From Bacilli bacterium (GTDB lineage Bacteria; Bacillota_I; Bacilli_A; RF39; UBA660), in NCBI GenBank assembly GCA_017404555.1, contig JAFRCD010000001.1:15850-79849 (forward strand): DNA of 64,000 nucleotides, read 5' to 3'. A program made the translations under genes and the position numbers. How positions within the stretch are numbered: the stretch's first letter is position 1; each line of letters begins with the position of its first letter. The notes under the pieces were generated by a model. The model was not told where the DNA came from and searched no databases. It saw only the letters and a list, made by a program, of their open reading frames with translations. Below are positions 3,474 to 22,302 of the stretch, in pieces.

Positions 3474-3482
3474 TGATATAAT
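3474..3482 (+). promoter_or_regulatory. extended -10 element (TGnTATAAT) upstream of the methyltransferase gene
   Basis: tgatataat lies about 40 nt upstream of AGGAGG (3512-3517) and ATG 3523. Confidence 0.4.
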
Positions 3483-3522
3483 GTTTATAGGAGATATAGT
3501 AAGTACAAATCAGGAGGAAAAT

Positions 3523-5466
3523 ATGTTTGATATACAAAATCGTAGATACATAGGTAATAAATATAAATTAATGGATTGGATATCTGATTTAATAGACAAA
3601 AATTGTAAAAATTGTCACTCGTTCTTTGATGTATTTGCCGGAACTGGATCTGTAACGGATTATATGTTTGATAAGTATGATAGATTTATAATAAATGACT
3701 TTTTATATTCAAACAATATAATATATAATGCCTTTTTTTTGAATGAAGAATATAATGCTGAATTGATAAATGATATAAAAATTAGATATCAGAAATTAGA
3801 TTCATCAAAACTTAAAGATAATTATGTTTCAATCAATTTTGGAAATAAGTTTTTTAATTATGATGATTCTTTAAAAATTGGATACATAAGAGAAGACATT
3901 GAAAAGTTAAAAAAATCTAACAAAATTAATTACAAAGAATATAGTATATTAATTGCTTCACTATTATATTCTTTAGATAGGATAGCTAATACAATTGGCC
4001 ATTATGATGCTTATAGAAAAACAAAAGAAATAAAATCAAGTTTCATATTTGAATTGATTAATCCTAAAGATGATAATCAAAAAAAGGTAATAGAAATATA
4101 TAGAGAAGATTCTAATGGCTTAGCTAAAAGAGTTAAATGTGATATTGCTTATATAGATCCTCCATATAATTCGAGACAATATAGTAGATTTTATCATGTT
4201 TTAGAAAATATTACTGAATGGAAAAAACCTGAGTTATTTGGGGCTGCTTTAAAACCTAAAGAAAAAAATATGTCTGATTATTGCAAGGTTACTGCTCCAA
4301 TAGCGTTTAATGATTTGGTTCAAAGCTTAGATGCAAAATACATAGTAGTTTCTTATAATAATACATACAATTCTAAGAGTAATTCTTCAAAAAATAAGAT
4401 TACATTAGAAGAATTAGAAACAATATTGTCTAGTAAAGGTGAAACACAAATATTTGAAAAGAAATACAAGGCATTTGATGCTGGGAAAACAGATTTAAAC
4501 GATCATAAAGAATTTATATTTATAACTAAAGTAAAGAAAGATATTAAGAAGGAAATATCTTATAGATCACCATTATTTTATGTTGGTGATAAATATAAAT
4601 TAATGCCTGAAATTAAAAAATATATGCCAGAGGGGATTGTTAATTATGTAGAACCTTTTGTTGGCGGTGGTTCATCGTTTCTAAATGTAAAAGCAAAAAA
4701 TTATATTGTCAACGATATAGATACAAGTATTATGTCAATTCATGAAATGCTAAAATCATATTCATTTGATAAAGAAAAATTCTTTGATAAAGCTTTCAAA
4801 TTAATAAATCGTTATGGATTATCATGTTCATATAATGGACATTTAGTTCCTGAAGAATTAAAGCAAAAATATAAGAAAACTTACTATGCTAAGTATAATA
4901 AAGAAGCATACATAAAATTAAGAAATGACTATAATAAAGATCAAAAGGATATATTAAAGTTATATTTATTATTAATATATGGATTTAATCATATGACAAG
5001 ATTCAACTCTAAAGGTCAATTTAATTTACCTGTTGGTAATGTGGATTTTAATAGTAATGTATATAATTCACTAAATTATTATTTTGATTATTTAAAGAGA
5101 ATAAAAATAAAATATTCAAGTATGGATTATAAAAAATTTTTAAATTCTTTATTGCTAAATGAAAATGACTATGTATTATTGGATCCTCCATATTTAATAA
5201 GTCAAAGCGAATATAACAAATTATGGAGTGAAAAAGATGAAAAAGAATTATATGAATTATTAGATGAACTTGATAAAAAGGGAATTAGATTTGGTATAAC
5301 AAATTTGGTTTATCATAAAGGAAAGAAAAATACTATTTTTGAAAAATGGTCTAAAAAGTATAATGTTTATGAGATTAATAGTAATTATATAAGCTTTAAT
5401 GATAATACAATTAAAGCAGGATCTAAGGAGGTGTTTGTTACTAATTATGGCACAAGCAAAGAGTAA
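3523..5466 (+). CDS. fused tandem N6-adenine DNA methyltransferase (two D12/Dam-class alpha domains), M.FokI-like
   Basis: Two complete Dam-like modules are each visible directly in the translation. Domain 1 has RRYIGNKYKL, FAGTGS (motif I) and IDPPYN (motif IV). Domain 2 has LFYVGDKYKL, FVGGGS and LDPPYL. The protein is 647 aa. The motif strings and the two-domain layout match my recollection of M.FokI (GGATG/CATCC). Confidence 0.8.
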   Translation: MFDIQNRRYIGNKYKLMDWISDLIDKNCKNCHSFFDVFAGTGSVTDYMFDKYDRFIINDFLYSNNIIYNAFFLNEEYNAELINDIKIRYQKLDSSKLKDNYVSINFGNKFFNYDDSLKIGYIREDIEKLKKSNKINYKEYSILIASLLYSLDRIANTIGHYDAYRKTKEIKSSFIFELINPKDDNQKKVIEIYREDSNGLAKRVKCDIAYIDPPYNSRQYSRFYHVLENITEWKKPELFGAALKPKEKNMSDYCKVTAPIAFNDLVQSLDAKYIVVSYNNTYNSKSNSSKNKITLEELETILSSKGETQIFEKKYKAFDAGKTDLNDHKEFIFITKVKKDIKKEISYRSPLFYVGDKYKLMPEIKKYMPEGIVNYVEPFVGGGSSFLNVKAKNYIVNDIDTSIMSIHEMLKSYSFDKEKFFDKAFKLINRYGLSCSYNGHLVPEELKQKYKKTYYAKYNKEAYIKLRNDYNKDQKDILKLYLLLIYGFNHMTRFNSKGQFNLPVGNVDFNSNVYNSLNYYFDYLKRIKIKYSSMDYKKFLNSLLLNENDYVLLDPPYLISQSEYNKLWSEKDEKELYELLDELDKKGIRFGITNLVYHKGKKNTIFEKWSKKYNVYEINSNYISFNDNTIKAGSKEVFVTNYGTSKE

Positions 5467-7057
5467 ACCATTATCATTTTCTACTACTATGAGAAATCCT
5501 AATAGAATAGCTGGTTTTTTATCACAAATAGTAGAATTTGAAGGGCAAGTTTTAACAAGTGAAATAATATATAAAGTTATACATAATGTTATAAAAAATA
5601 AATTATATTATACTATGTATGAATATGGCAAACCTGAATATAAAGATATATATTTTTCTGACGAATTAGAATTTTCTGATGAACAAGTAGATGATATTAT
5701 TGCTAGTACAAAACAAAAACATAAAGAGGCAGGATTTGAAGAGGGTTGGGAATCACGCTTTGATACTTGGTTTAGCTTACCTAAAGAATTTGGATTTGTC
5801 TTTTATGAAAAAGGAAAACAAATTAGAATATCTGAAACAGGACATATGTTAATAGATAATAGTAATTTGGAAGAACCTGATGAAGTAATGAATCAAAATA
5901 TATTTTTAAACAGTTTATGTAAGTATCAAACAAATAATCCATTTAAGAAAAATTTAAATGAAAATAATCCGTTACTTTTACTTTTGAATACAATTAAATT
6001 ATTGAAGAATGATCCTGAAGAAAATGATGCAGGAATATTTAGAAGTGAACTTAGTTTATTAATATGTTGGAATAATAATGATGCTACTGAAGTATATAAG
6101 CTAATTAAAAAGTTACGTAAACAAGTTGGGTTTCAATATAGTGATGAAATGATTTATGATATTTGTTTAGAATTATTAGGATGTGTTACACCAGAAGAAA
6201 AAGAAGCAAGTAAAAAATATTTTAAGATTGATAAAATATGTGGTGAAGCAGTAGATGAATATATAAGAAAAATGAGAAGCACAGGAATATTATCGTTAAG
6301 AGGAAATGGTAGATTTTTAGATTTTAATAGTTTTGAACAAAAGAAAATTGACTATGTACTAAGTAAGTACTCATCTATTAAAACTTATAGTAGTGAAGAA
6401 GAATATTTTAATTATATTGGTCAAAAAGATAAAGAATTATTTGATATTAATGATGAAGTAGATTATTCTAAAGAATATGGTATAAAGATTGAAACACTAA
6501 ATAAATTTGCAAACAAGTATACTAAGGAAGAAATATTTAAGGAACTTCTGATTTTAAGTAAGAAAACAGAAAGTAAAAATGATGAATTTAGATTTATACC
6601 TGATCCAACAAGATTAGAATTTTTAACTAGTATTTCTCTTGTTCAAAATTTAAATGGATGTTATGTTGAACCAAATTATTCAATAGATGATGAGGGAATG
6701 CCAACTATGACTGCAAGGGGCAATATGCCAGATATAGTTTGCACTGAAATAAGTGAAAACCCAAATGTATCGCCTTTGATTTCAAATGTTGAAGTGACCA
6801 TGATGAGAGGTAAAACTGACCAAGTTATGAATGAGATGATACCTATTAGAAGACATTTATTAAATGATATGTCAAAGCATAAGGATGTTTTTGCTGTTTT
6901 TGTTGCTCCATTTATTCATGATGATACTAAAGAAGCTTCTGAATGGTATAAACATAAAGACAATATAAATATAAATTTATATACAATAGAAGAATACATT
7001 TTAACAATAGAACAGCATAGTGAATTATATTATTTGAATAAAATGGAGATGAAGTAA
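5447..7057 (+). CDS. putative type IIS restriction endonuclease (FokI-like)
   Basis: The gene overlaps the methyltransferase gene by 20 nt. The N-terminal GxxxxWxSxFxxW...GFxxY pattern and a C-terminal PD...(E/D) segment (GNMPDIV...NVEVT) resemble the FokI recognition and cleavage domains from memory. The position directly after a FokI-like methyltransferase supports the call. Confidence 0.5.
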   Translation: MAQAKSKPLSFSTTMRNPNRIAGFLSQIVEFEGQVLTSEIIYKVIHNVIKNKLYYTMYEYGKPEYKDIYFSDELEFSDEQVDDIIASTKQKHKEAGFEEGWESRFDTWFSLPKEFGFVFYEKGKQIRISETGHMLIDNSNLEEPDEVMNQNIFLNSLCKYQTNNPFKKNLNENNPLLLLLNTIKLLKNDPEENDAGIFRSELSLLICWNNNDATEVYKLIKKLRKQVGFQYSDEMIYDICLELLGCVTPEEKEASKKYFKIDKICGEAVDEYIRKMRSTGILSLRGNGRFLDFNSFEQKKIDYVLSKYSSIKTYSSEEEYFNYIGQKDKELFDINDEVDYSKEYGIKIETLNKFANKYTKEEIFKELLILSKKTESKNDEFRFIPDPTRLEFLTSISLVQNLNGCYVEPNYSIDDEGMPTMTARGNMPDIVCTEISENPNVSPLISNVEVTMMRGKTDQVMNEMIPIRRHLLNDMSKHKDVFAVFVAPFIHDDTKEASEWYKHKDNININLYTIEEYILTIEQHSELYYLNKMEMK

Positions 7058-9267
7058 TGGAAGCAAATAATAGAATGTTATATGATGATATAATAAAGAA
7101 AACAGATGTTCAATATACGATTCCGGTATATCAAAGAAATTATACTTGGGAAAAAGAAAACTGTGAGTTATTGTATAACGATATAGTTAGTAGTATAAAA
7201 AATGAGAGAAACCATTTTTTAGGAAGCTTAGTTTATTCAACAACAAAACGTAATGATATAAAAAGCTGTCCGATAATTGACGGACAACAAAGATTAACAA
7301 CAATTATGTTATTATTGAAAGCTATTGATGATTTAATTAAAGATCCTGAAAATATTACAAAAAAGAAAATTAAACAAAATATATATAACGAAAACTGTGA
7401 AGAGAGATATAAACTAAAACTTAAAAATAGTGATAATGATAATTCTGAATTGGAAAAAGTATTGATGGGGAATACTACTAATTTAGATACAACATCTAAA
7501 GTAGTTATCAATTATAATCATTTTAAATCTTTAATTAAAAGAACTATTGAAACAGAACAGTGGAGCCCTGATAAATTGGTTGAAGGCATTGATAGATTGG
7601 AAATTGTTGAAATAGTTTTAAACGAAGGAGATTCACCTCAAAAAATATTTGAAAGTATAAATTCTACAGGAGTAAAGTTAACAACTGCAGATTTAATTAG
7701 AAATTTTTTACTTATGGGCATTTTGGATGTTGGAAAGCAGGCTGAAATATATAAAAATTATTGGATAACAATAGAAAGTTTAATAGGTAAAGATAATATT
7801 GAAAAGTTTTTCTATGATTTTCTTGTTTCAAAGGATACAAGGTACATAGAAGAAAAGAAAGTATATGAAAATTTTAAAAAATATTATATAAATAGTAACA
7901 TAATAGGAATTGAAGGTATTGAAAAGATATTTAGTGAAATAGTTAGATATGCTCAGTATTATAAATTGTTAGTTTTAAACAATTCTAAAGATTATGATAA
8001 AGTAACAAATCAATTATGCAATATATTTAATATTTTGCAACATAGAACTATATATCCATTTATGTTAAAAGTATGTAATGATTTTGATGATATTAGAAAA
8101 TTACATATGAAAAGAAAAAACGATGTAGGTGAAGAAGTTAAAATAGAGTTAACAAAAGAAGAAGAATTAGAATTAATAAATAAGGAAAAAGAATTTAATA
8201 ACATTATAAGATTATTTGGTAATTATGCTATGAGACGTAATATAGCAAATGTTGCTTCATCAAGTCTACGTAGATTTTATGCATCTTTATATAATAAAAT
8301 ATTTGAAAAAAATAAAAATAATTTTAACTGTTATTTTAAGGCATGTGAGGCATATTTATGTACATTAAAAACAGAAGATAGGATGCCTAATGATAATATG
8401 TTTAAGGATGGCTTACTATATAGTAATATGTACGCTAATGCTAAAACAAGAATATTAAGATATTTCTTTGATTTGATAGAAAATAGTGGAAAAGAGCCAG
8501 TCGATATGTCTGAATTAACTATAGAACACATAATGCCTGAGACATTAAGTACTCAGTGGAAAACAAGTTTGGGTGATAATTATCAAGAAATATATGATAA
8601 ATACGTTCATACATTAGGTAATTTATCCATTACAGGTTATAATTCTGAATATAGTAATGATCCATTCTTGAGTAAGAAAAAACGTTATAATGATATGCTT
8701 ATTACAGGTGAAACTAAAATTGTAAAATTGAATGAAGAATTAAAGAATAATAAAGAAAACAACATAGAGATTTGGAATGAAGACGAAATTGAGAAGCGTG
8801 CAGAAAGATTATCAAAAGTAATTATGAAGGAGTTTCCTTATCCTAAAGACATAGATACTACATTAGAGTTTGAAAAATTTTATGAATTCTATATAGATAA
8901 TCCTGAAGATAATGCTGATGAATTTGAAAACAGCCCTGCATACAAATTATATGGATTCCAATTTGAAGAAACAAAATATAGGGCAGATAGTTACAGAAGC
9001 ATATTCAAGGAGATAATTAAATTATTATATAATATTGATAATTCTGTTTTAGATGACTTAGCAAATAGTAATTATACCTATGAAAGAGGTAAAACTATAA
9101 GATTTTCGAGAACTAAAGAAAATGAGCATCAAGAAGAAATTTTACCATCATTATTTGTTTATACAAATTATAGTAGAAGTACAATTTTTGATTGGATAAG
9201 AGATTTATTTAATAGATATCAATTAGATATATCATTATTTTGTTTATTATTTATAGAAAAAGAATAA
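7057..9267 (+). CDS. GmrSD-like type IV restriction enzyme (DUF262 N-domain fused to DUF1524 HNH-like C-domain)
   Basis: DUF262 motifs are present (IPVYQRNYTWEKE; IIDGQQRLTT). The C-terminus has a His-Me finger-like TIEHIMPE. The ATG overlaps the upstream stop codon (taATGg). Confidence 0.8.
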   Translation: MEANNRMLYDDIIKKTDVQYTIPVYQRNYTWEKENCELLYNDIVSSIKNERNHFLGSLVYSTTKRNDIKSCPIIDGQQRLTTIMLLLKAIDDLIKDPENITKKKIKQNIYNENCEERYKLKLKNSDNDNSELEKVLMGNTTNLDTTSKVVINYNHFKSLIKRTIETEQWSPDKLVEGIDRLEIVEIVLNEGDSPQKIFESINSTGVKLTTADLIRNFLLMGILDVGKQAEIYKNYWITIESLIGKDNIEKFFYDFLVSKDTRYIEEKKVYENFKKYYINSNIIGIEGIEKIFSEIVRYAQYYKLLVLNNSKDYDKVTNQLCNIFNILQHRTIYPFMLKVCNDFDDIRKLHMKRKNDVGEEVKIELTKEEELELINKEKEFNNIIRLFGNYAMRRNIANVASSSLRRFYASLYNKIFEKNKNNFNCYFKACEAYLCTLKTEDRMPNDNMFKDGLLYSNMYANAKTRILRYFFDLIENSGKEPVDMSELTIEHIMPETLSTQWKTSLGDNYQEIYDKYVHTLGNLSITGYNSEYSNDPFLSKKKRYNDMLITGETKIVKLNEELKNNKENNIEIWNEDEIEKRAERLSKVIMKEFPYPKDIDTTLEFEKFYEFYIDNPEDNADEFENSPAYKLYGFQFEETKYRADSYRSIFKEIIKLLYNIDNSVLDDLANSNYTYERGKTIRFSRTKENEHQEEILPSLFVYTNYSRSTIFDWIRDLFNRYQLDISLFCLLFIEKE

Positions 9268-9337
9268 AAGAAGGCGCTAGTACAGGCTTAATATATAAGT
9301 TTTTGTATGGCGTTTTTTTAGTAGGAGGTAATTAATA

Positions 9338-9676
9338 ATGTCTAAAACTATCATTCACAATATGCCTTTACCTTCAAATACAAAATATAAATGGTCTGAA
9401 TGTTTTGCTAAATTAATGTTGGAAAAAGTGATAACTAGTGAGTTAAATAATTTAGCTATAGCTGATAAACCAGATCTTCAAAATGCAAGCATGAGTGTTG
9501 GTATTGAGGTTACTACTGCTGTTGATAAAAAAGATATGGAGTTAGAGAGACTATACACTGAAATTGAATATGGATTGATTAGAAATATTGAAGGTGCAGC
9601 AAAAAAAATTAATAGATTGGGTGGAAAAATTATTGATGGAATATTAATTCATCCAGGACGACAAGAACACTTATGA
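9338..9676 (+). CDS. hypothetical protein (first gene of the three-gene module)
   Basis: 112 aa, AGGAGG RBS 9 nt upstream. No recognisable domain. Confidence 0.55.
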   Translation: MSKTIIHNMPLPSNTKYKWSECFAKLMLEKVITSELNNLAIADKPDLQNASMSVGIEVTTAVDKKDMELERLYTEIEYGLIRNIEGAAKKINRLGGKIIDGILIHPGRQEHL

Positions 9677-9999
9677 ATATATATAATTCTTTTAAAGAAA
9701 AAGTAATTTTGTTAAATAGTGGAAATTATACTATTTTTAAACATAATTATATATTCATTACTGATGAAAATTTAGCACATGAGGAAGAAATCAAAATGGT
9801 AATGATGGAGTTAGAGTTTATACAGGAAAAACAAAAGAATAAATTTGAAAGGGCTTATATATATATTTATGGAGATAAACTTTATGAGTTAAATCTAAAA
9901 CAAGAAAAATACAAAATATTTAAATTATCTTCAGATGAGGTTTATAGAATAAGTATAGATGCTAGAACTATTGTAGAAGAAAAAGAAATGGAGATGTAA
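9673..9999 (+). CDS. hypothetical protein (second gene of the module)
   Basis: 108 aa. Its start overlaps the upstream stop (ATGA). Its own stop lies 2 nt before the next ATG. Confidence 0.55.
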   Translation: MNIYNSFKEKVILLNSGNYTIFKHNYIFITDENLAHEEEIKMVMMELEFIQEKQKNKFERAYIYIYGDKLYELNLKQEKYKIFKLSSDEVYRISIDARTIVEEKEMEM

Positions 10000-10001
10000 T
10001 T

Positions 10002-12191
10002 ATGAAATTAGCTGAAAACCAAAAAATATTCAAGCAGTTAAATATTGATGATGCTTTGTGGGATGATATAAAAAAAGATGACAATAAGGTATTAATTGTT
10101 TATGGATCAAATGGAAGAGGTAAATCTACAATAAAAGATTTATTTCAAAAAGAAAATTTAGAAGAAAAGTTTGGATGTGAATCAGAAAATCAATCTAATA
10201 CTTTATATAATGAATTTGGAAATAATAAGTTTTTAGTATTTGATGAAAAATTTGTTGATCAATTTGTGTATTTTAATAATGCGCTGCAACAAAATAGTAT
10301 GAAAATTATAATGAAAACTGATTACATAAATGAACTATATAATGAAAAATCACACGCTAATGATGTAGTAGATATGATATTAGATACAATCAATAAATAT
10401 TTATCGACTATTGAATCATTTAATTCTATTCTAAATATTAAGTCTAATACAGGAAAAATTACTGATGCTAAAAAAAGATTTGCAACTACATTTATAGAAG
10501 GAAATTTGCCATATAAATATGATGATTTATTTGAAATAAGTGACGATAATCATAGAAAATGGTGGTATGAAGGTCTTTTACTATATAAGGATAATAAGCT
10601 TGATTTTTGCCCTTGGTGTAAAACTACTATTGAATCTGTAAATGAATCTTTAAAAGAACAAATAAAATCTGTGGATAATACGAAGCGAATCAATACTAAA
10701 CTATTTAGTGATAAAGTTGATAAAGTTTCTAATCTGTCGACAATAATGAATAACACTTTAATTAATGAAGAAGTAAAAAATAAAATTAGTCAACTAATTT
10801 CAAAAATAAACGTTTCTGTAGATCAGAATGTTGAAGAAAAGATTTTAACTGACATGGAGTCATTATATTCTTTATTGATTAATGATAATGAAATATTTGC
10901 TGAAATAAAAGATAAAGTTAAAATTTTAGATAATATATTAGAGATACAAGACATAGATTTAGCTAATAATATATCTAAATTAAAATTTTTTAGTCCAACA
11001 GATGAAATTATCAAATTAAGTGATAATTTGGATTATTTTATTAAATATAATAAGGATATTATTAATGGTATTAAAGATAGTAATAAAAGATTGCATGAAA
11101 TAATTAAAAGTGACGAAATTGATATTAATAATATTATTAAAAGTTTAGGATTAAAATACTATATAGAAATTGAATCTGATACTATAGTTTCCTCTGGAAT
11201 AAATGATAATGAAAAATACATGTATTTAAAGAGTTTGAATGGAAAAGACGTAAGTCAAAATATCGGGAATGTGCTTAGTTTTGGTGAAAAAAGTACATTA
11301 GCGTTTGCAATATTTATAGAACAGATTCGAAATTGTACTGATGAAAACACTATTATAATTTTTGATGATCCAATATCTAGTTATGATATTTTTAGAAGAT
11401 ATACTTCGCTCGGAATTATACAGACAATTACTGCATTACAATATAAAAAAATAGTAATACTTACACACGAAAGTAATTTTTTAACGTCGATTGTTTCAAA
11501 TTATGAACATTATACAAATGTTAAATGTACTATTTTAACAGAAATTAATGAATCAGAAATAGAAATAAAAGAATTACATAGACAATATGATAGTGAGGTT
11601 AATGTCTATAAAGATATGCTGAATTTTTCCTTTGATTTTCATATTTCACAAAGAATAATAGCTTTAAGACAGTTGCACGATTTATATCAATATATAACTG
11701 GAGATAGCAAAAAAGAATTATATAAATATATATGCAAATTAGTACATTTTAGAAAAGATGAACAAACATATTGGAATCAAGTAATGAAAACACAAATTAA
11801 TGAATTATTTAATTATTTTGCTATTAGTTATGATTCTCAAATTGAAAATATAAAGGATGAACAATTAGTATTTTCAGACATGGAACAATTATTAAATGAG
11901 ATAACATCAAAGGATATATATGATATTACATTAGAGGATCTAGTAAGCTTAAGAATGATTTCAGAAGTTTCAGTTAGAAATGAATCGAATGATGCAAATA
12001 AATTCAAAGTTAGAACATTATGGTCTATTAAATCATCAAGTAAAAAAGACCAACTTCAAAATTTTAAAGTTCTACTTAATTCAATTACTCATATCGATAA
12101 TGATGAAATAACATGGCCTGTTTTATGTATAAATGATTTAAAGTCAATTCCTAAATATGTTATATCCCAAATTATTAGTATAATAAAATAA
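10002..12191 (+). CDS. ABC/Rad50-like ATPase with a CxxC hook-like insert (RloC/PrrC- or Lamassu LmuB-like defence ATPase candidate)
   Basis: Walker A (YGSNGRGKST) is followed by an insert of about 400 aa containing CPWC, then an ABC-signature-like LSFGEKS, Walker B (IIIFDDPISSYD) and a His-loop-like LTHESNF. A further 240-aa C-terminal region has unknown function. Confidence 0.6.
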   Translation: MKLAENQKIFKQLNIDDALWDDIKKDDNKVLIVYGSNGRGKSTIKDLFQKENLEEKFGCESENQSNTLYNEFGNNKFLVFDEKFVDQFVYFNNALQQNSMKIIMKTDYINELYNEKSHANDVVDMILDTINKYLSTIESFNSILNIKSNTGKITDAKKRFATTFIEGNLPYKYDDLFEISDDNHRKWWYEGLLLYKDNKLDFCPWCKTTIESVNESLKEQIKSVDNTKRINTKLFSDKVDKVSNLSTIMNNTLINEEVKNKISQLISKINVSVDQNVEEKILTDMESLYSLLINDNEIFAEIKDKVKILDNILEIQDIDLANNISKLKFFSPTDEIIKLSDNLDYFIKYNKDIINGIKDSNKRLHEIIKSDEIDINNIIKSLGLKYYIEIESDTIVSSGINDNEKYMYLKSLNGKDVSQNIGNVLSFGEKSTLAFAIFIEQIRNCTDENTIIIFDDPISSYDIFRRYTSLGIIQTITALQYKKIVILTHESNFLTSIVSNYEHYTNVKCTILTEINESEIEIKELHRQYDSEVNVYKDMLNFSFDFHISQRIIALRQLHDLYQYITGDSKKELYKYICKLVHFRKDEQTYWNQVMKTQINELFNYFAISYDSQIENIKDEQLVFSDMEQLLNEITSKDIYDITLEDLVSLRMISEVSVRNESNDANKFKVRTLWSIKSSSKKDQLQNFKVLLNSITHIDNDEITWPVLCINDLKSIPKYVISQIISIIK

Positions 12192-12194
12192 TTA

Positions 12195-12232
12195 AAAGCA
12201 TATATAGCCACGAATCTATATATGCTTTTTTT
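12195..12232 (+). terminator. rho-independent terminator
   Basis: aaaagcatatatag...ctatatatgctttttttt. Confidence 0.7.
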
Positions 12233-12241
12233 ATAACATTT

Positions 12242-12283
12242 TTACATCCTATTTTAGATGACAAATTACATCCCATTTTAGAT
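12242..12283. repeat. two 18-nt direct repeats (ttacatcc[t/c]attttagat) with a 24-nt period
   Basis: Read directly from the sequence. One mismatch between the two copies. Confidence 0.6.
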
Positions 12284-12524
12284 ATTTTTGTGGTATCTAA
12301 AAAATGATACTAAAATGTACTACAGTGTACAAACCCTTATTTTATAAGGAATTTTGAATTGTGGTGAATAAAAGAAAGGCTAAAATTTTCGGCCCCCTGA
12401 AGAGAACAAAGATATAATTATGTAATTAGGTCTTAAAATAAAACAAATAAAGTGATAAAATTGTTAATGGTTATAGAATAGTAAAAGGGAAACTTGGTAT
12501 TTGGAATATTTAATGGGTGATTAT

Positions 12525-20022: not shown

Positions 20023-20934
20023 ATGAAAAACTTTGATTTTAGTTGGTTTTTAACAATACCAGGAATGTTGATTACCGGAGGAGTATTATTATTAATTATT
20101 GCCTTGATAATATTTATTGCTACTTCAGGTAAGAAAGATAAAAAAGATAAGAAGAAAGGGAAGGAAGAAGTACCAGTGGATAATAATATGATGAATGCTG
20201 CACCAGCAGCCGGAGCTGTAGCTCCAAATCCAGAAATTGCAACTATGGATGTACCAGCTGATACACCAGCTGAAGCACCAACAGAGGCTCCAGCAATCCC
20301 AATTGAGGTACCTGATCCAACTACTGAAGCTACTCCAGAGCCAGCAGAACCATTTGCTGTACCTGAGGCTACACCTACTCCTGAAACACCAGCAGCAGAG
20401 ACACCTGCTGTAGAAACTCCAGTAGTAGAAGCAGCACCAGTAGAAACTCCTGCTGTAGAAACACCAGTAGTGGAAGCTGCTCCAGTAGAGGCAGCACCAG
20501 TAGAAGCTACTCCAGTTGAAACTCCTGTTGTAGAGGCAGCGCCAGTAGAGACTCCAGTAGTAGAAGCTGCTCCAGTGGAGACACCAGTAGCTGATGCTCA
20601 AGTACCAGAAGTACCAGTAGTAGAAACACCAGTAGTAGAAGCTGCTCCAGTAGAGGCAGCACCAGTAGAAGCTACTCCAGTTTATGGCGGTGCTGATCCG
20701 AGTGTAAGCAATGTAGATGTTACTCCAGCTGAAGAGCCAAAACAAATATATGGTGGCGCTAATCCTGCTGATAATACCGGTGTAGTAGAAGCTACTCCAG
20801 TAGAAACTCCAGTAGTAGAGGCAGCACCTGTAGAAGCCGCTCCAGCAGCAACTCCAGTAACACCAGTTAGTGTTCAACCAGTTGGTGAACCAAGTTCAAT
20901 CCCAACAGTTGTTCAAAACGAAACAAATAATTAA
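20023..20934 (+). CDS. membrane-anchored Pro/Ala/Val/Glu/Thr-rich repeat protein
   Basis: N-terminal TM (LTIPGMLITGGVLLLIIALIIFI) is followed by a low-complexity region with (E/A)(T/A)PVVEAAPV repeats. Confidence 0.65.
   Translation: MKNFDFSWFLTIPGMLITGGVLLLIIALIIFIATSGKKDKKDKKKGKEEVPVDNNMMNAAPAAGAVAPNPEIATMDVPADTPAEAPTEAPAIPIEVPDPTTEATPEPAEPFAVPEATPTPETPAAETPAVETPVVEAAPVETPAVETPVVEAAPVEAAPVEATPVETPVVEAAPVETPVVEAAPVETPVADAQVPEVPVVETPVVEAAPVEAAPVEATPVYGGADPSVSNVDVTPAEEPKQIYGGANPADNTGVVEATPVETPVVEAAPVEAAPAATPVTPVSVQPVGEPSSIPTVVQNETNN
20380..20680 (+). repeat. imperfect tandem repeats of about 30 nt encoding ETPVVEAAPV units
   Basis: Recurrent gaaactcc(a/t)g(t/c)(a/t)gtagaagc(a/t)gc(a/t)ccagta blocks are visible in the DNA. 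Confidence 0.7.
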
Positions 20935-21373: not shown

Positions 21374-21401
21374 TTGACATATAAACAGTATTTGTTATTA
21401 T
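21374..21401 (+). promoter_or_regulatory. putative sigma-A promoter (TTGACA, 16-nt spacer, TATTAT)
   Basis: A consensus -35 and a near-consensus -10 lie about 20 nt upstream of the GGAGG RBS of the 21421 gene. Confidence 0.5.
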
Positions 21402-21420
21402 GCCTTTGATGGAGGTAATA

Positions 21421-22302
21421 ATGAATTACTATAACGAGATAAAGAACAAGCTTATTGATAATGAGATATATATTAAAGTAAAAGATTATTCTAAAGAAAG
21501 AAATAGAGTAATTACTTATTATGAAGTGGGTAAGTTATTAAGTTCTGCTGGCAAACAATATGGTGATGGAATAATTAAAGAGTATTCAAAAAGATTAACC
21601 AATGAAGTTGGAAAAAAATATACTGTTAGATATTTGTTTGATATTAGGAGATTATACTATTTTTTAAAAGTGCACCCGCTGGATGCATTTTTAACATTTT
21701 CTCATTATAGAGTTTTATTTGTCTTGAAAGATGACAACGAAGTCAATTATTACATAAATCAAACTGTTGAAAGAAATTTATCAAAACGGGCATTACAAGA
21801 GGTAATTAAAAATAAAGAGTATGAAAGATTGCCAGAGAAAACTAAAAAGAAATTAATAGAAAACAAAAATACTAGTGTACAGGATTTAATTAAAAATCCT
21901 ATTATAATAAGAAATCCTAATAATATAGAAGTAGTAAAAGAAAAGGTACTACAAAGATTAATACTAGAAGATATAGATAACTTTTTAAAGGAGTTAGGAG
22001 ACGGATTTAGTTATATTGAAAATGAATACAAAATAAAGATAGGACCTAGTTATAATTATATAGATTTATTACTTTTTAATTATAAATATAATTGTTTTGT
22101 GGTAGTAGAGTTAAAAGTAATTCCTCTAAAGAAAGAACATATAGGACAGATAAAAGTATACATGAACTACATAGATAATCATTTAAGAAATATTAATCAA
22201 GATAAGACAATAGGTATTATTATATGCAAACATAATAATACATTTATTATGGAATACTGTTCCGATAAAAGGATTCTTTCTAAAGAATATAGTTTGGTTT
22301 AA
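21421..22302 (+). CDS. DUF1016/YhcG-family PD-(D/E)XK nuclease
   Basis: C-terminal core IDLLLFNYKYNCFVVVELKV (D...ELK), with an N-terminal YhcG-like region. Confidence 0.65.
   Translation: MNYYNEIKNKLIDNEIYIKVKDYSKERNRVITYYEVGKLLSSAGKQYGDGIIKEYSKRLTNEVGKKYTVRYLFDIRRLYYFLKVHPLDAFLTFSHYRVLFVLKDDNEVNYYINQTVERNLSKRALQEVIKNKEYERLPEKTKKKLIENKNTSVQDLIKNPIIIRNPNNIEVVKEKVLQRLILEDIDNFLKELGDGFSYIENEYKIKIGPSYNYIDLLLFNYKYNCFVVVELKVIPLKKEHIGQIKVYMNYIDNHLRNINQDKTIGIIICKHNNTFIMEYCSDKRILSKEYSLV

Follow-up and report, generated by a model that had tools for sequence, protein, structure and literature searches.

RloC proteins are recognized by the motifs of an ABC ATPase, an insert with a coiled coil and a CxxC motif, and a C-terminal region carrying Arg-X3-Glu-X36-52-His, in which Ser often precedes the His, within a total length of 658–897 amino acids (aa) (PMC2610378). 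In GkaRloC of Geobacillus kaustophilus, ATP hydrolysis is stimulated by DNA, especially by DNA ends, and hook mutations uncouple the nuclease. DNA ends activate RloC in vitro, but DNA breaks alone gave no detectable activation of an RloC nuclease in its natural Acinetobacter host (PMC3458546). The related PrrC protein (341–416 aa) has no coiled-coil/zinc-hook insert and is always found within a type I restriction–modification (R-M) locus (PMC2610378, PMC3458546). Here we describe a locus (9338–12191) in a stretch of 64,000 nucleotides from a Bacilli bacterium, hereafter called the window. The locus is probably a two-gene defence cassette at the end of a chromosomal restriction island, composed of an RloC-type ATPase and a partner protein with a PD-(D/E)xK-like fold, the gene of which is broken in this genome.

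The Two Small ORFs Are Halves of One Partner Gene

In the list of open reading frames (ORFs), the ATPase gene (10002–12191, 729 aa) is preceded by two small ORFs of 112 aa (9338–9676) and 108 aa (9673–9999), and all three lie on the forward strand, as do all the mapped features given below. The small ORFs overlap by ATGA at 9673–9676, and a 2-nt gap separates the second one from the ATPase gene. A ribosome-binding site (RBS), AGGAGG, is located at 9322–9327, 10 nt 5' of the ATG at 9338, and an intrinsic terminator at 12194–12236 consists of the hairpin GCATATATAG...CTATATATGC (12194–12229) followed by T7. The original prediction, made from the sequence, described this arrangement as a module of three tightly coupled genes, two of them encoding small unknown proteins. 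Its ORF coordinates, overlap, gap, RBS and terminator are all present in the sequence. The three-gene module is not: the two small ORFs are the halves of a single gene for about 220 aa (9338–9999), split by a 1-bp deletion.

An intact single gene of 217–220 aa, ending 2–5 nt 5' of the ATPase start, was found in every relative of the ATPase clade (loci L008–L017, L037–L039, L041 and L044). Eight distinct relatives, with ATPases 44–99% identical to that of the window, carry it. The intact gene accompanies ATPases of 99% (L012–L014), 91% (L015–L017), 89% (L008/L009, L037, L038, L041), 83% (L011, L039), 65% (L010) and 44% identity (L044). When the region was aligned pairwise with that of L012 (ATPase 99% identical), one indel was revealed across the whole 662 nt. 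It maps to 9656–9665, where the window reads GGACGACAAG and L012 reads GGACGAACAAG, one A being missing. A four-way DNA alignment placed this one-column gap in the window sequence only. When the intact protein was used as a tblastn query on the window, two matches were obtained in different frames, overlapping at the break.

The deletion changes residues 109–111 of the N-terminal fragment from TRT to QEH and leads to an out-of-frame TGA after L112; the fragment keeps the invariant residues E21, E29, P45-D46 and E57-V-T59. At 9673, the apparent start codon of the second ORF is the codon for Met113 inside the intact gene, and Met113 is the first residue of helix 113–126 in the structural model. 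Therefore, the ATGA overlap, previously taken for tight translational coupling, simply arose from the frameshift. The AlphaFold2 model of the intact partner (P0057, built on a 41-sequence alignment) shows one compact domain across both halves, with a pLDDT of 93.3 and a pTM of 0.90. The C-terminal fragment carries a further substitution, I147A, which took two base changes and affects a nearly invariant residue, whereas the ATPase differs from its 99% identical relative at seven positions only, all of them variable ones.

A real mutation is favoured over a sequencing or assembly error since no other broken genes are seen in the ORF list of the window and the site is only an AA dinucleotide, with no long homopolymer. 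We consider an error, which would leave the organism with an intact two-gene cassette, rather unlikely: a single-base deletion within an otherwise 98–99% identical cassette, next to an untouched ATPase gene, is what such an error would look like, but the I147A change hints at relaxed selection on the partner gene. It is very unlikely that the split gene is functional, with both fragments (aa 1–112 and 113–220) translated, the second one by reinitiation at the ATGA, and refolded so that the locus yields three working polypeptides, an arrangement near to that of the original prediction. The break lies in a loop, the second ORF starts exactly at the first residue of a helix, only residues 109–111 are altered, and a stop/start ATGA overlap is able to support reinitiation. 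Nevertheless, no other relative has the split, the 99% identical one included, and the full-length family members recovered were all of 202–225 aa. Moreover, the nearly invariant R110 is replaced by E and the nearly invariant I147 by A, and no convincing RBS precedes 9673, so that a recent inactivating mutation is the simplest reading. Programmed frameshifting and phase variation were rejected, given that the deletion lies outside any repeat tract and is absent from all the relatives. For annotation, the case is a caution, as a single frameshifted gene upstream of a defence ATPase took the form of two tidy small ORFs with an overlap.

The Partner Belongs to a Family with a Predicted PD-(D/E)xK-like Fold

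The partner family comprises 45 detected members of approximately 202–225 aa, 35–100% identical, and no member matches a model in Pfam, PADLOC, NCBIfam or PHROGs. Scans of both small ORFs and of the intact partner against Pfam, NCBIfam, PADLOC and PHROGs gave nothing usable, and a Foldseek search of the partner against the Protein Data Bank (PDB) returned nothing significant. The family alignment revealed the invariant residues E21, A24, E29, P45-D46, G55, E57, T59 and A61. In the AlphaFold2 model E21 and E29 are placed on helix 19–31, P45-D46 just before strand 47–49 and E57-x-T59 on strand 54–60. PD-(D/E)xK nucleases are defined by an alpha-beta-beta-beta-alpha-beta core with an acidic residue in helix 1, (P)D at strand 2 and (D/E)-x-K in strand 3. 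The residue layout of the partner resembles this core with Thr in place of Lys, which gives an atypical E-x-T. Hence, the earlier claim that these small proteins lack recognisable motifs is true for the profile libraries and untrue at the level of fold and motif. No partner was found in the scan of viral contigs, so there was no sign of phage carriage. A conserved nuclease-fold partner of this kind was not described in the literature searched, and the partner is apparently undescribed.

The ATPase Is an RloC-like Defence Protein

The 729-aa protein matches Pfam AAA_13 (E=1.3e-13). Among the PADLOC models, PDLC04889 of the candidate system PDC-S06 matches it at full length (E=5.9e-33; residues 22–728 on positions 15–687 of the 693-position profile, an alignment that takes in the C-terminal domain), and five further PDC-S06 models match with E-values of 2.7e-10 to 1.7e-3. 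The literature searched lists PDC-S06 solely as a candidate system of PADLOC that has not been published. In Bacillus cereus genomes, however, proteins that PADLOC assigns to PDC-S06 are labelled RloC by DefenseFinder (PMC11811056 Supplementary Data 6). Homologues of the ATPase are 42–99% identical, and the family occurs in gut and rumen Bacilli, Erysipelotrichales and Mollicutes-type metagenome-assembled genomes. A PDB sequence search with the ATPase profile gave no match, and tblastn of the ATPase on plasmids returned only 20–25% identical genes annotated as 'AAA family ATPase', which were uninformative.

All the ABC motifs named in the original prediction are present in the protein: Walker A GSNGRGKST (aa 35–43, 10104–10130), and the ABC signature LSFGEKS (aa 425–431), Walker B/D-loop IIIFDDP (aa 451–457) and H-loop LTHES (aa 487–491), which together span 11274–11474. 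In an alignment of 15 homologues these motifs are invariant or nearly so, G35, N37, G38, G40, K41, S42 and T43 of Walker A being invariant. The head is split by an insert of approximately aa 100–420 that contains an invariant CPWC, a candidate zinc hook. This motif was also predicted correctly, but its position is aa 203–206 (10608–10619) and not 199–202. Residues 101–350 of the insert contain very few Pro and Gly by a crude count.

The C-terminal domain (aa 525–729, 11574–12188) is all-helical in its model (pLDDT 91.4, eleven helices) and is a predicted RNase of a HEPN-like or anticodon nuclease-like type. Its invariant residues are R556, H582-x-R584-K585, R651-x3-E655-x3-R659 and N693-x3-H697-x-D699. 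The search for an Arg-Glu-His triad, suggested earlier as a check, was thus successful: R651-x3-E655-x41-H697 is invariant in 27 homologues (42–99% identity), with T or S before the His in most of them, and K41, C203/C206 and D455/D456 are likewise invariant across these homologues. C203, P204 and C206 remain unchanged in relatives as distant as 19–20% identity, which also keep R556, H582/R584, R651 and H697(-x-D/E). In the model R651, E655 and R659 are found on one face of helix 650–661 and H697 just after helix 680–695. Fold matches of the domain were weak, several of them to HEPN proteins. The HEPN superfamily is an all-alpha bundle with a conserved R-x4-6-H and often an E-x3-[KR] (PMC3710099).

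Like GkaRloC, the ATPase has an ABC head split by a long insert with a CxxC. Its length of 729 aa and triad spacing of x41, with T or S before the His, fall inside the published ranges, and its gene is located in a restriction/defence island. The RloC architecture proposed earlier, an ABC head split by a CxxC insert plus an extra C-terminal domain, is supported, as is the placing of the ATPase among defence-island rather than housekeeping proteins. The claim that the ATPase is undescribed did not hold, as the protein belongs to the catalogued PDC-S06/RloC-like family. Nonetheless, several differences from RloC were noticed. The C-terminal domain has no HMMER-detectable similarity beyond its own narrow family, the distance from Walker B to the triad Arg is 196 residues versus 120 in GkaRloC (approximately 75 longer), and H582-x-R584-K585 and R556 are additional invariant residues. 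Finally, RloC is catalogued as a system of one gene, but in the clade described here a dedicated partner gene lies upstream of the ATPase gene.

The Cassette Is Mobile and the Pairing Is Facultative

The conserved cassette (9263–12405) comprises the leader, the partner gene, the ATPase gene, the terminator and approximately 170 nt downstream. By blastn, exactly this span is 98% identical at the nucleotide level to L012/L013 and 91% identical to L015–L017, whereas the flanking genes differ. The block is conserved while both flanks vary, and therefore the pair moves as a cassette between defence islands. It was always found among R-M or other defence genes.

The pairing of the ATPase and the partner is facultative. 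The ATPase occurs without the partner at 68% identity (L005, where a type II R-M system immediately precedes it), at 49% identity (L004/L023) and at 42% identity (L001/L025/L026). As to the conservation of the small ORFs next to ATPase homologues, which had been proposed as a test, the two as one gene are present at 99, 91, 89, 83, 65 and 44% identity and absent at 68, 49 and 42%. Two neighbours of partner-less ATPases, a 255-aa gene upstream of the 49% identical ATPase in L024 and a 153-aa gene in L025, were tried as partner homologues and rejected, being unrelated to the 220-aa family. In the 42% clade the 153-aa gene, for which Pfam gave no match, overlaps the end of the ATPase gene at its stop codon in different contexts (L001:8199-8660, L025:7199-7660, L026:5885-6346) and may be an alternative partner of this clade.

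Partner homologues in turn were found alone (L042, L043) or next to other systems. One that is 44% identical follows, after 11 nt, a gene of 391 aa that combines AAA_21 with an OLD-type TOPRIM domain (L020:4814-6654, L021); of the AAA_21 profile only the C-terminal half is matched by the ATPase part of this OLD-type gene, which may therefore be truncated. Another follows a KAP NTPase on a conjugative element (L022). Full-length homologues (hhalign probability 99.7%) are located between hsdM and hsdS of type I R-M operons with hsdR downstream (L048:3770-4420, L049:2463-3188), which makes the gene a restriction-linked ORF. This position resembles that of prrC within its hsd locus.

Further arrangements were recorded around the two genes. 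A gene of approximately 70 aa with DUF7695 overlaps the start of a partner homologue beside AbiEi/AbiEii (L018:5805-6663, L019, L045). A DUF7695 gene also lies beside an AbiEi-like gene just downstream of a 42% identical ATPase (L001:9650-9859), making it a recurring uncharacterised neighbour in defence islands. A 280-aa ORF with no Pfam match recurs directly upstream of the partner gene, in the position taken in the window by the GmrSD gene (L008:6376-7218, L043:513-1355, L047:107-949). In two loci an in-frame fusion joins partner residues 1–117 (78% identical) to a valyl-tRNA synthetase portion made up of the anticodon-binding domain and the C-terminal arm, giving ORFs of 349–353 aa (L046:343-1404, L047:1067-2116). 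This fusion has the appearance of a deletion junction, or else of a metagenome contig that is chimeric, with the rest of the cassette removed.

Genomic Neighbourhood

Upstream of the cassette and outside it, the window encodes a double Dam-type methyltransferase (3481–5466), an AlwI-family endonuclease (5399–7057) and a GmrSD type IV endonuclease (7057–9267), in agreement with the R-M and GmrSD neighbours reported in the original prediction. The methyltransferase and AlwI-family endonuclease ORFs (3481–7057) overlap by 68 nt. The same R-M pair (methyltransferase with 82% nucleotide identity) occupies L010:1-3272, where it is followed by a four-gene DUF6339 cluster and then by the same cassette. 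Thus, the R-M system and the cassette occur together in at least two genomes with different genes in between. The island is bordered by ordinary chromosomal genes, those for LysR and a flavodoxin-like protein on one side and for a YggS-like protein and GlmS on the other.

A gene of the YhcG/DUF1016 PDDEXK nuclease family (21400–22302) lies about 9 kb downstream of the island. The G+C content of the window is approximately 27%, with a spike of 43% at 20023–20934, where a Pro-rich ORF of 303 aa with extensin-like repeats is located; the long antisense ORF at 20125–20877 is a probable artefact of the repeat composition. An Rfam scan of the whole window gave no match.

Alternative Identities of the System

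A Rad50/SMC-like ATPase next to a nuclease-fold protein in a defence island recalls Lamassu (LmuB, LmuA, LmuC), a likeness to LmuB having been claimed earlier. By the logic of Lamassu or Rad50-Mre11, the ATPase would be only a sensor of DNA ends with a regulatory or docking C-terminal domain, and the PD-(D/E)xK partner would be the DNA-degrading effector. We find this reading unlikely. It would suit the nuclease-like fold and conserved acidic residues of the partner, its tight coupling to the ATPase, the presence of its homologues beside an OLD-type ABC ATPase and the weakness of the HEPN matches. However, the ATPase has its own conserved, catalytic-looking C-terminal domain, and the partner-less clades keep R, E and H invariant, which suggests an activity of the ATPase itself. 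The partner lacks the catalytic Lys, and in this genome, with the partner broken and the ATPase intact, the module would have no effector. Lamassu itself was rejected as an identity: in the ATPase and the two ORF fragments PADLOC detected PDC-S06, mad8 (E=0.015) and SspB (E=0.0067) only, the intact partner had no match, and neither a DUF4297/LmuA-like nor an LmuC-like gene was seen nearby. Nothing speaks for the likeness to LmuB, PDC-S06 and a marginal mad8 match (E up to 0.1) being the only PADLOC families recorded for the ATPase.

Hardly any credence can be given to a housekeeping repair ATPase of the SMC/RecN/SbcC type without a defence role. The general Rad50-like layout and a weak Pfam SMC_N match (E=0.015; 15.2 bits versus a cut-off of 40, hence sub-threshold) speak for it, but the evidence contradicts it. 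Profile searches did not place the protein in any such family: NCBIfam gave only sub-threshold ABC-transporter-type and thioredoxin matches with no repair-ATPase family, there are no sequence relatives in PDB, and the full-length match is to a PADLOC defence-candidate model. The patchy distribution with variable flanks within R-M/defence islands does not fit a housekeeping gene either. The pair shares with Rad50-Mre11 and SbcC-SbcD a zinc-hook-type ABC ATPase and a small nuclease-fold protein in one operon, whereas it differs from them in the PD-(D/E)xK-like instead of calcineurin-like phosphoesterase partner, in the far shorter insert, in the extra RNase-like C-terminal domain and in its defence-island-like instead of housekeeping distribution. 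With the EcoprrI-linked PrrC the ATPase shares the combination of an ABC NTPase and a C-terminal Arg-x3-Glu...His RNase motif as well as the linkage to restriction enzymes; in contrast to PrrC, the cassette neighbours type II and type IV enzymes and moves independently of them.

Altogether, these comparisons favour the two-gene cassette of an RloC-type ATPase and a PD-(D/E)xK-like partner, although some results weigh against it. E655 of the triad is not conserved in the relatives of 19–20% identity. An hmmsearch with the C-domain profile against 1.84 billion representative proteins found only its own family; because of this, homology to the canonical RloC nuclease domain is supported by the motif, the architecture and the equivalence of the detection tools rather than by similarity of the sequences themselves. 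That equivalence comes from B. cereus and may involve PDC-S06 sub-models other than PDLC04889. The facultative pairing leaves a mechanistic dependence of the ATPase on the partner unproven, and the frameshift is possibly an assembly error.

Proposed Mechanism and Significance

The data show the frameshift, how often the two genes pair, the family of the ATPase and the conservation of its motifs, whereas RNase activity, tRNA as its substrate, the trigger and the role of the partner are inferences. By analogy with GkaRloC, the ATPase and candidate zinc-hook part would hold back the C-terminal RNase until a trigger sets off ATP hydrolysis. This trigger may be linked to DNA, candidates being DNA ends or a breakdown of the restriction systems nearby. 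Once released, the RNase would cleave tRNAs in their anticodon loops, stopping translation and aborting the infection. We infer that the partner acts on the DNA side, either as a DNA-binding or nicking accessory, as Mre11/SbcD does for Rad50/SbcC, or as a component that regulates the switch. In this genome the cassette would be either running on the ATPase alone or decaying; an ATPase working alone is plausible because its sister clades have no partner.

A role as a portable adaptor is in keeping with the occurrence of partner homologues in R-M operons and beside another ABC ATPase. In its fullest form, which we put forward only tentatively and regard as doubtful, the partner would be a portable DNA-side adaptor of abortive-infection systems, docking on an RloC-type ATPase and in other genomes on an OLD-type ABC ATPase or a type I R-M complex, and relaying the state of DNA or restriction, such as DNA ends or a restriction enzyme that is stalled or inhibited, to an RNA-cutting effector. 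The role of the partner is directly testable because natural genomes exist with the partner, without it or with a broken one. If the adaptor reading is true, the RloC-type protein and its partner would be a Rad50/Mre11-like pair that turns the sensing of DNA damage into tRNA cleavage, and the partner would supply the tether to DNA or restriction enzymes postulated for RloC by the Kaufmann laboratory. For RloC-type systems in general, the partner family provides a tangible candidate for what connects the status of DNA or of restriction with the cleavage of tRNA.

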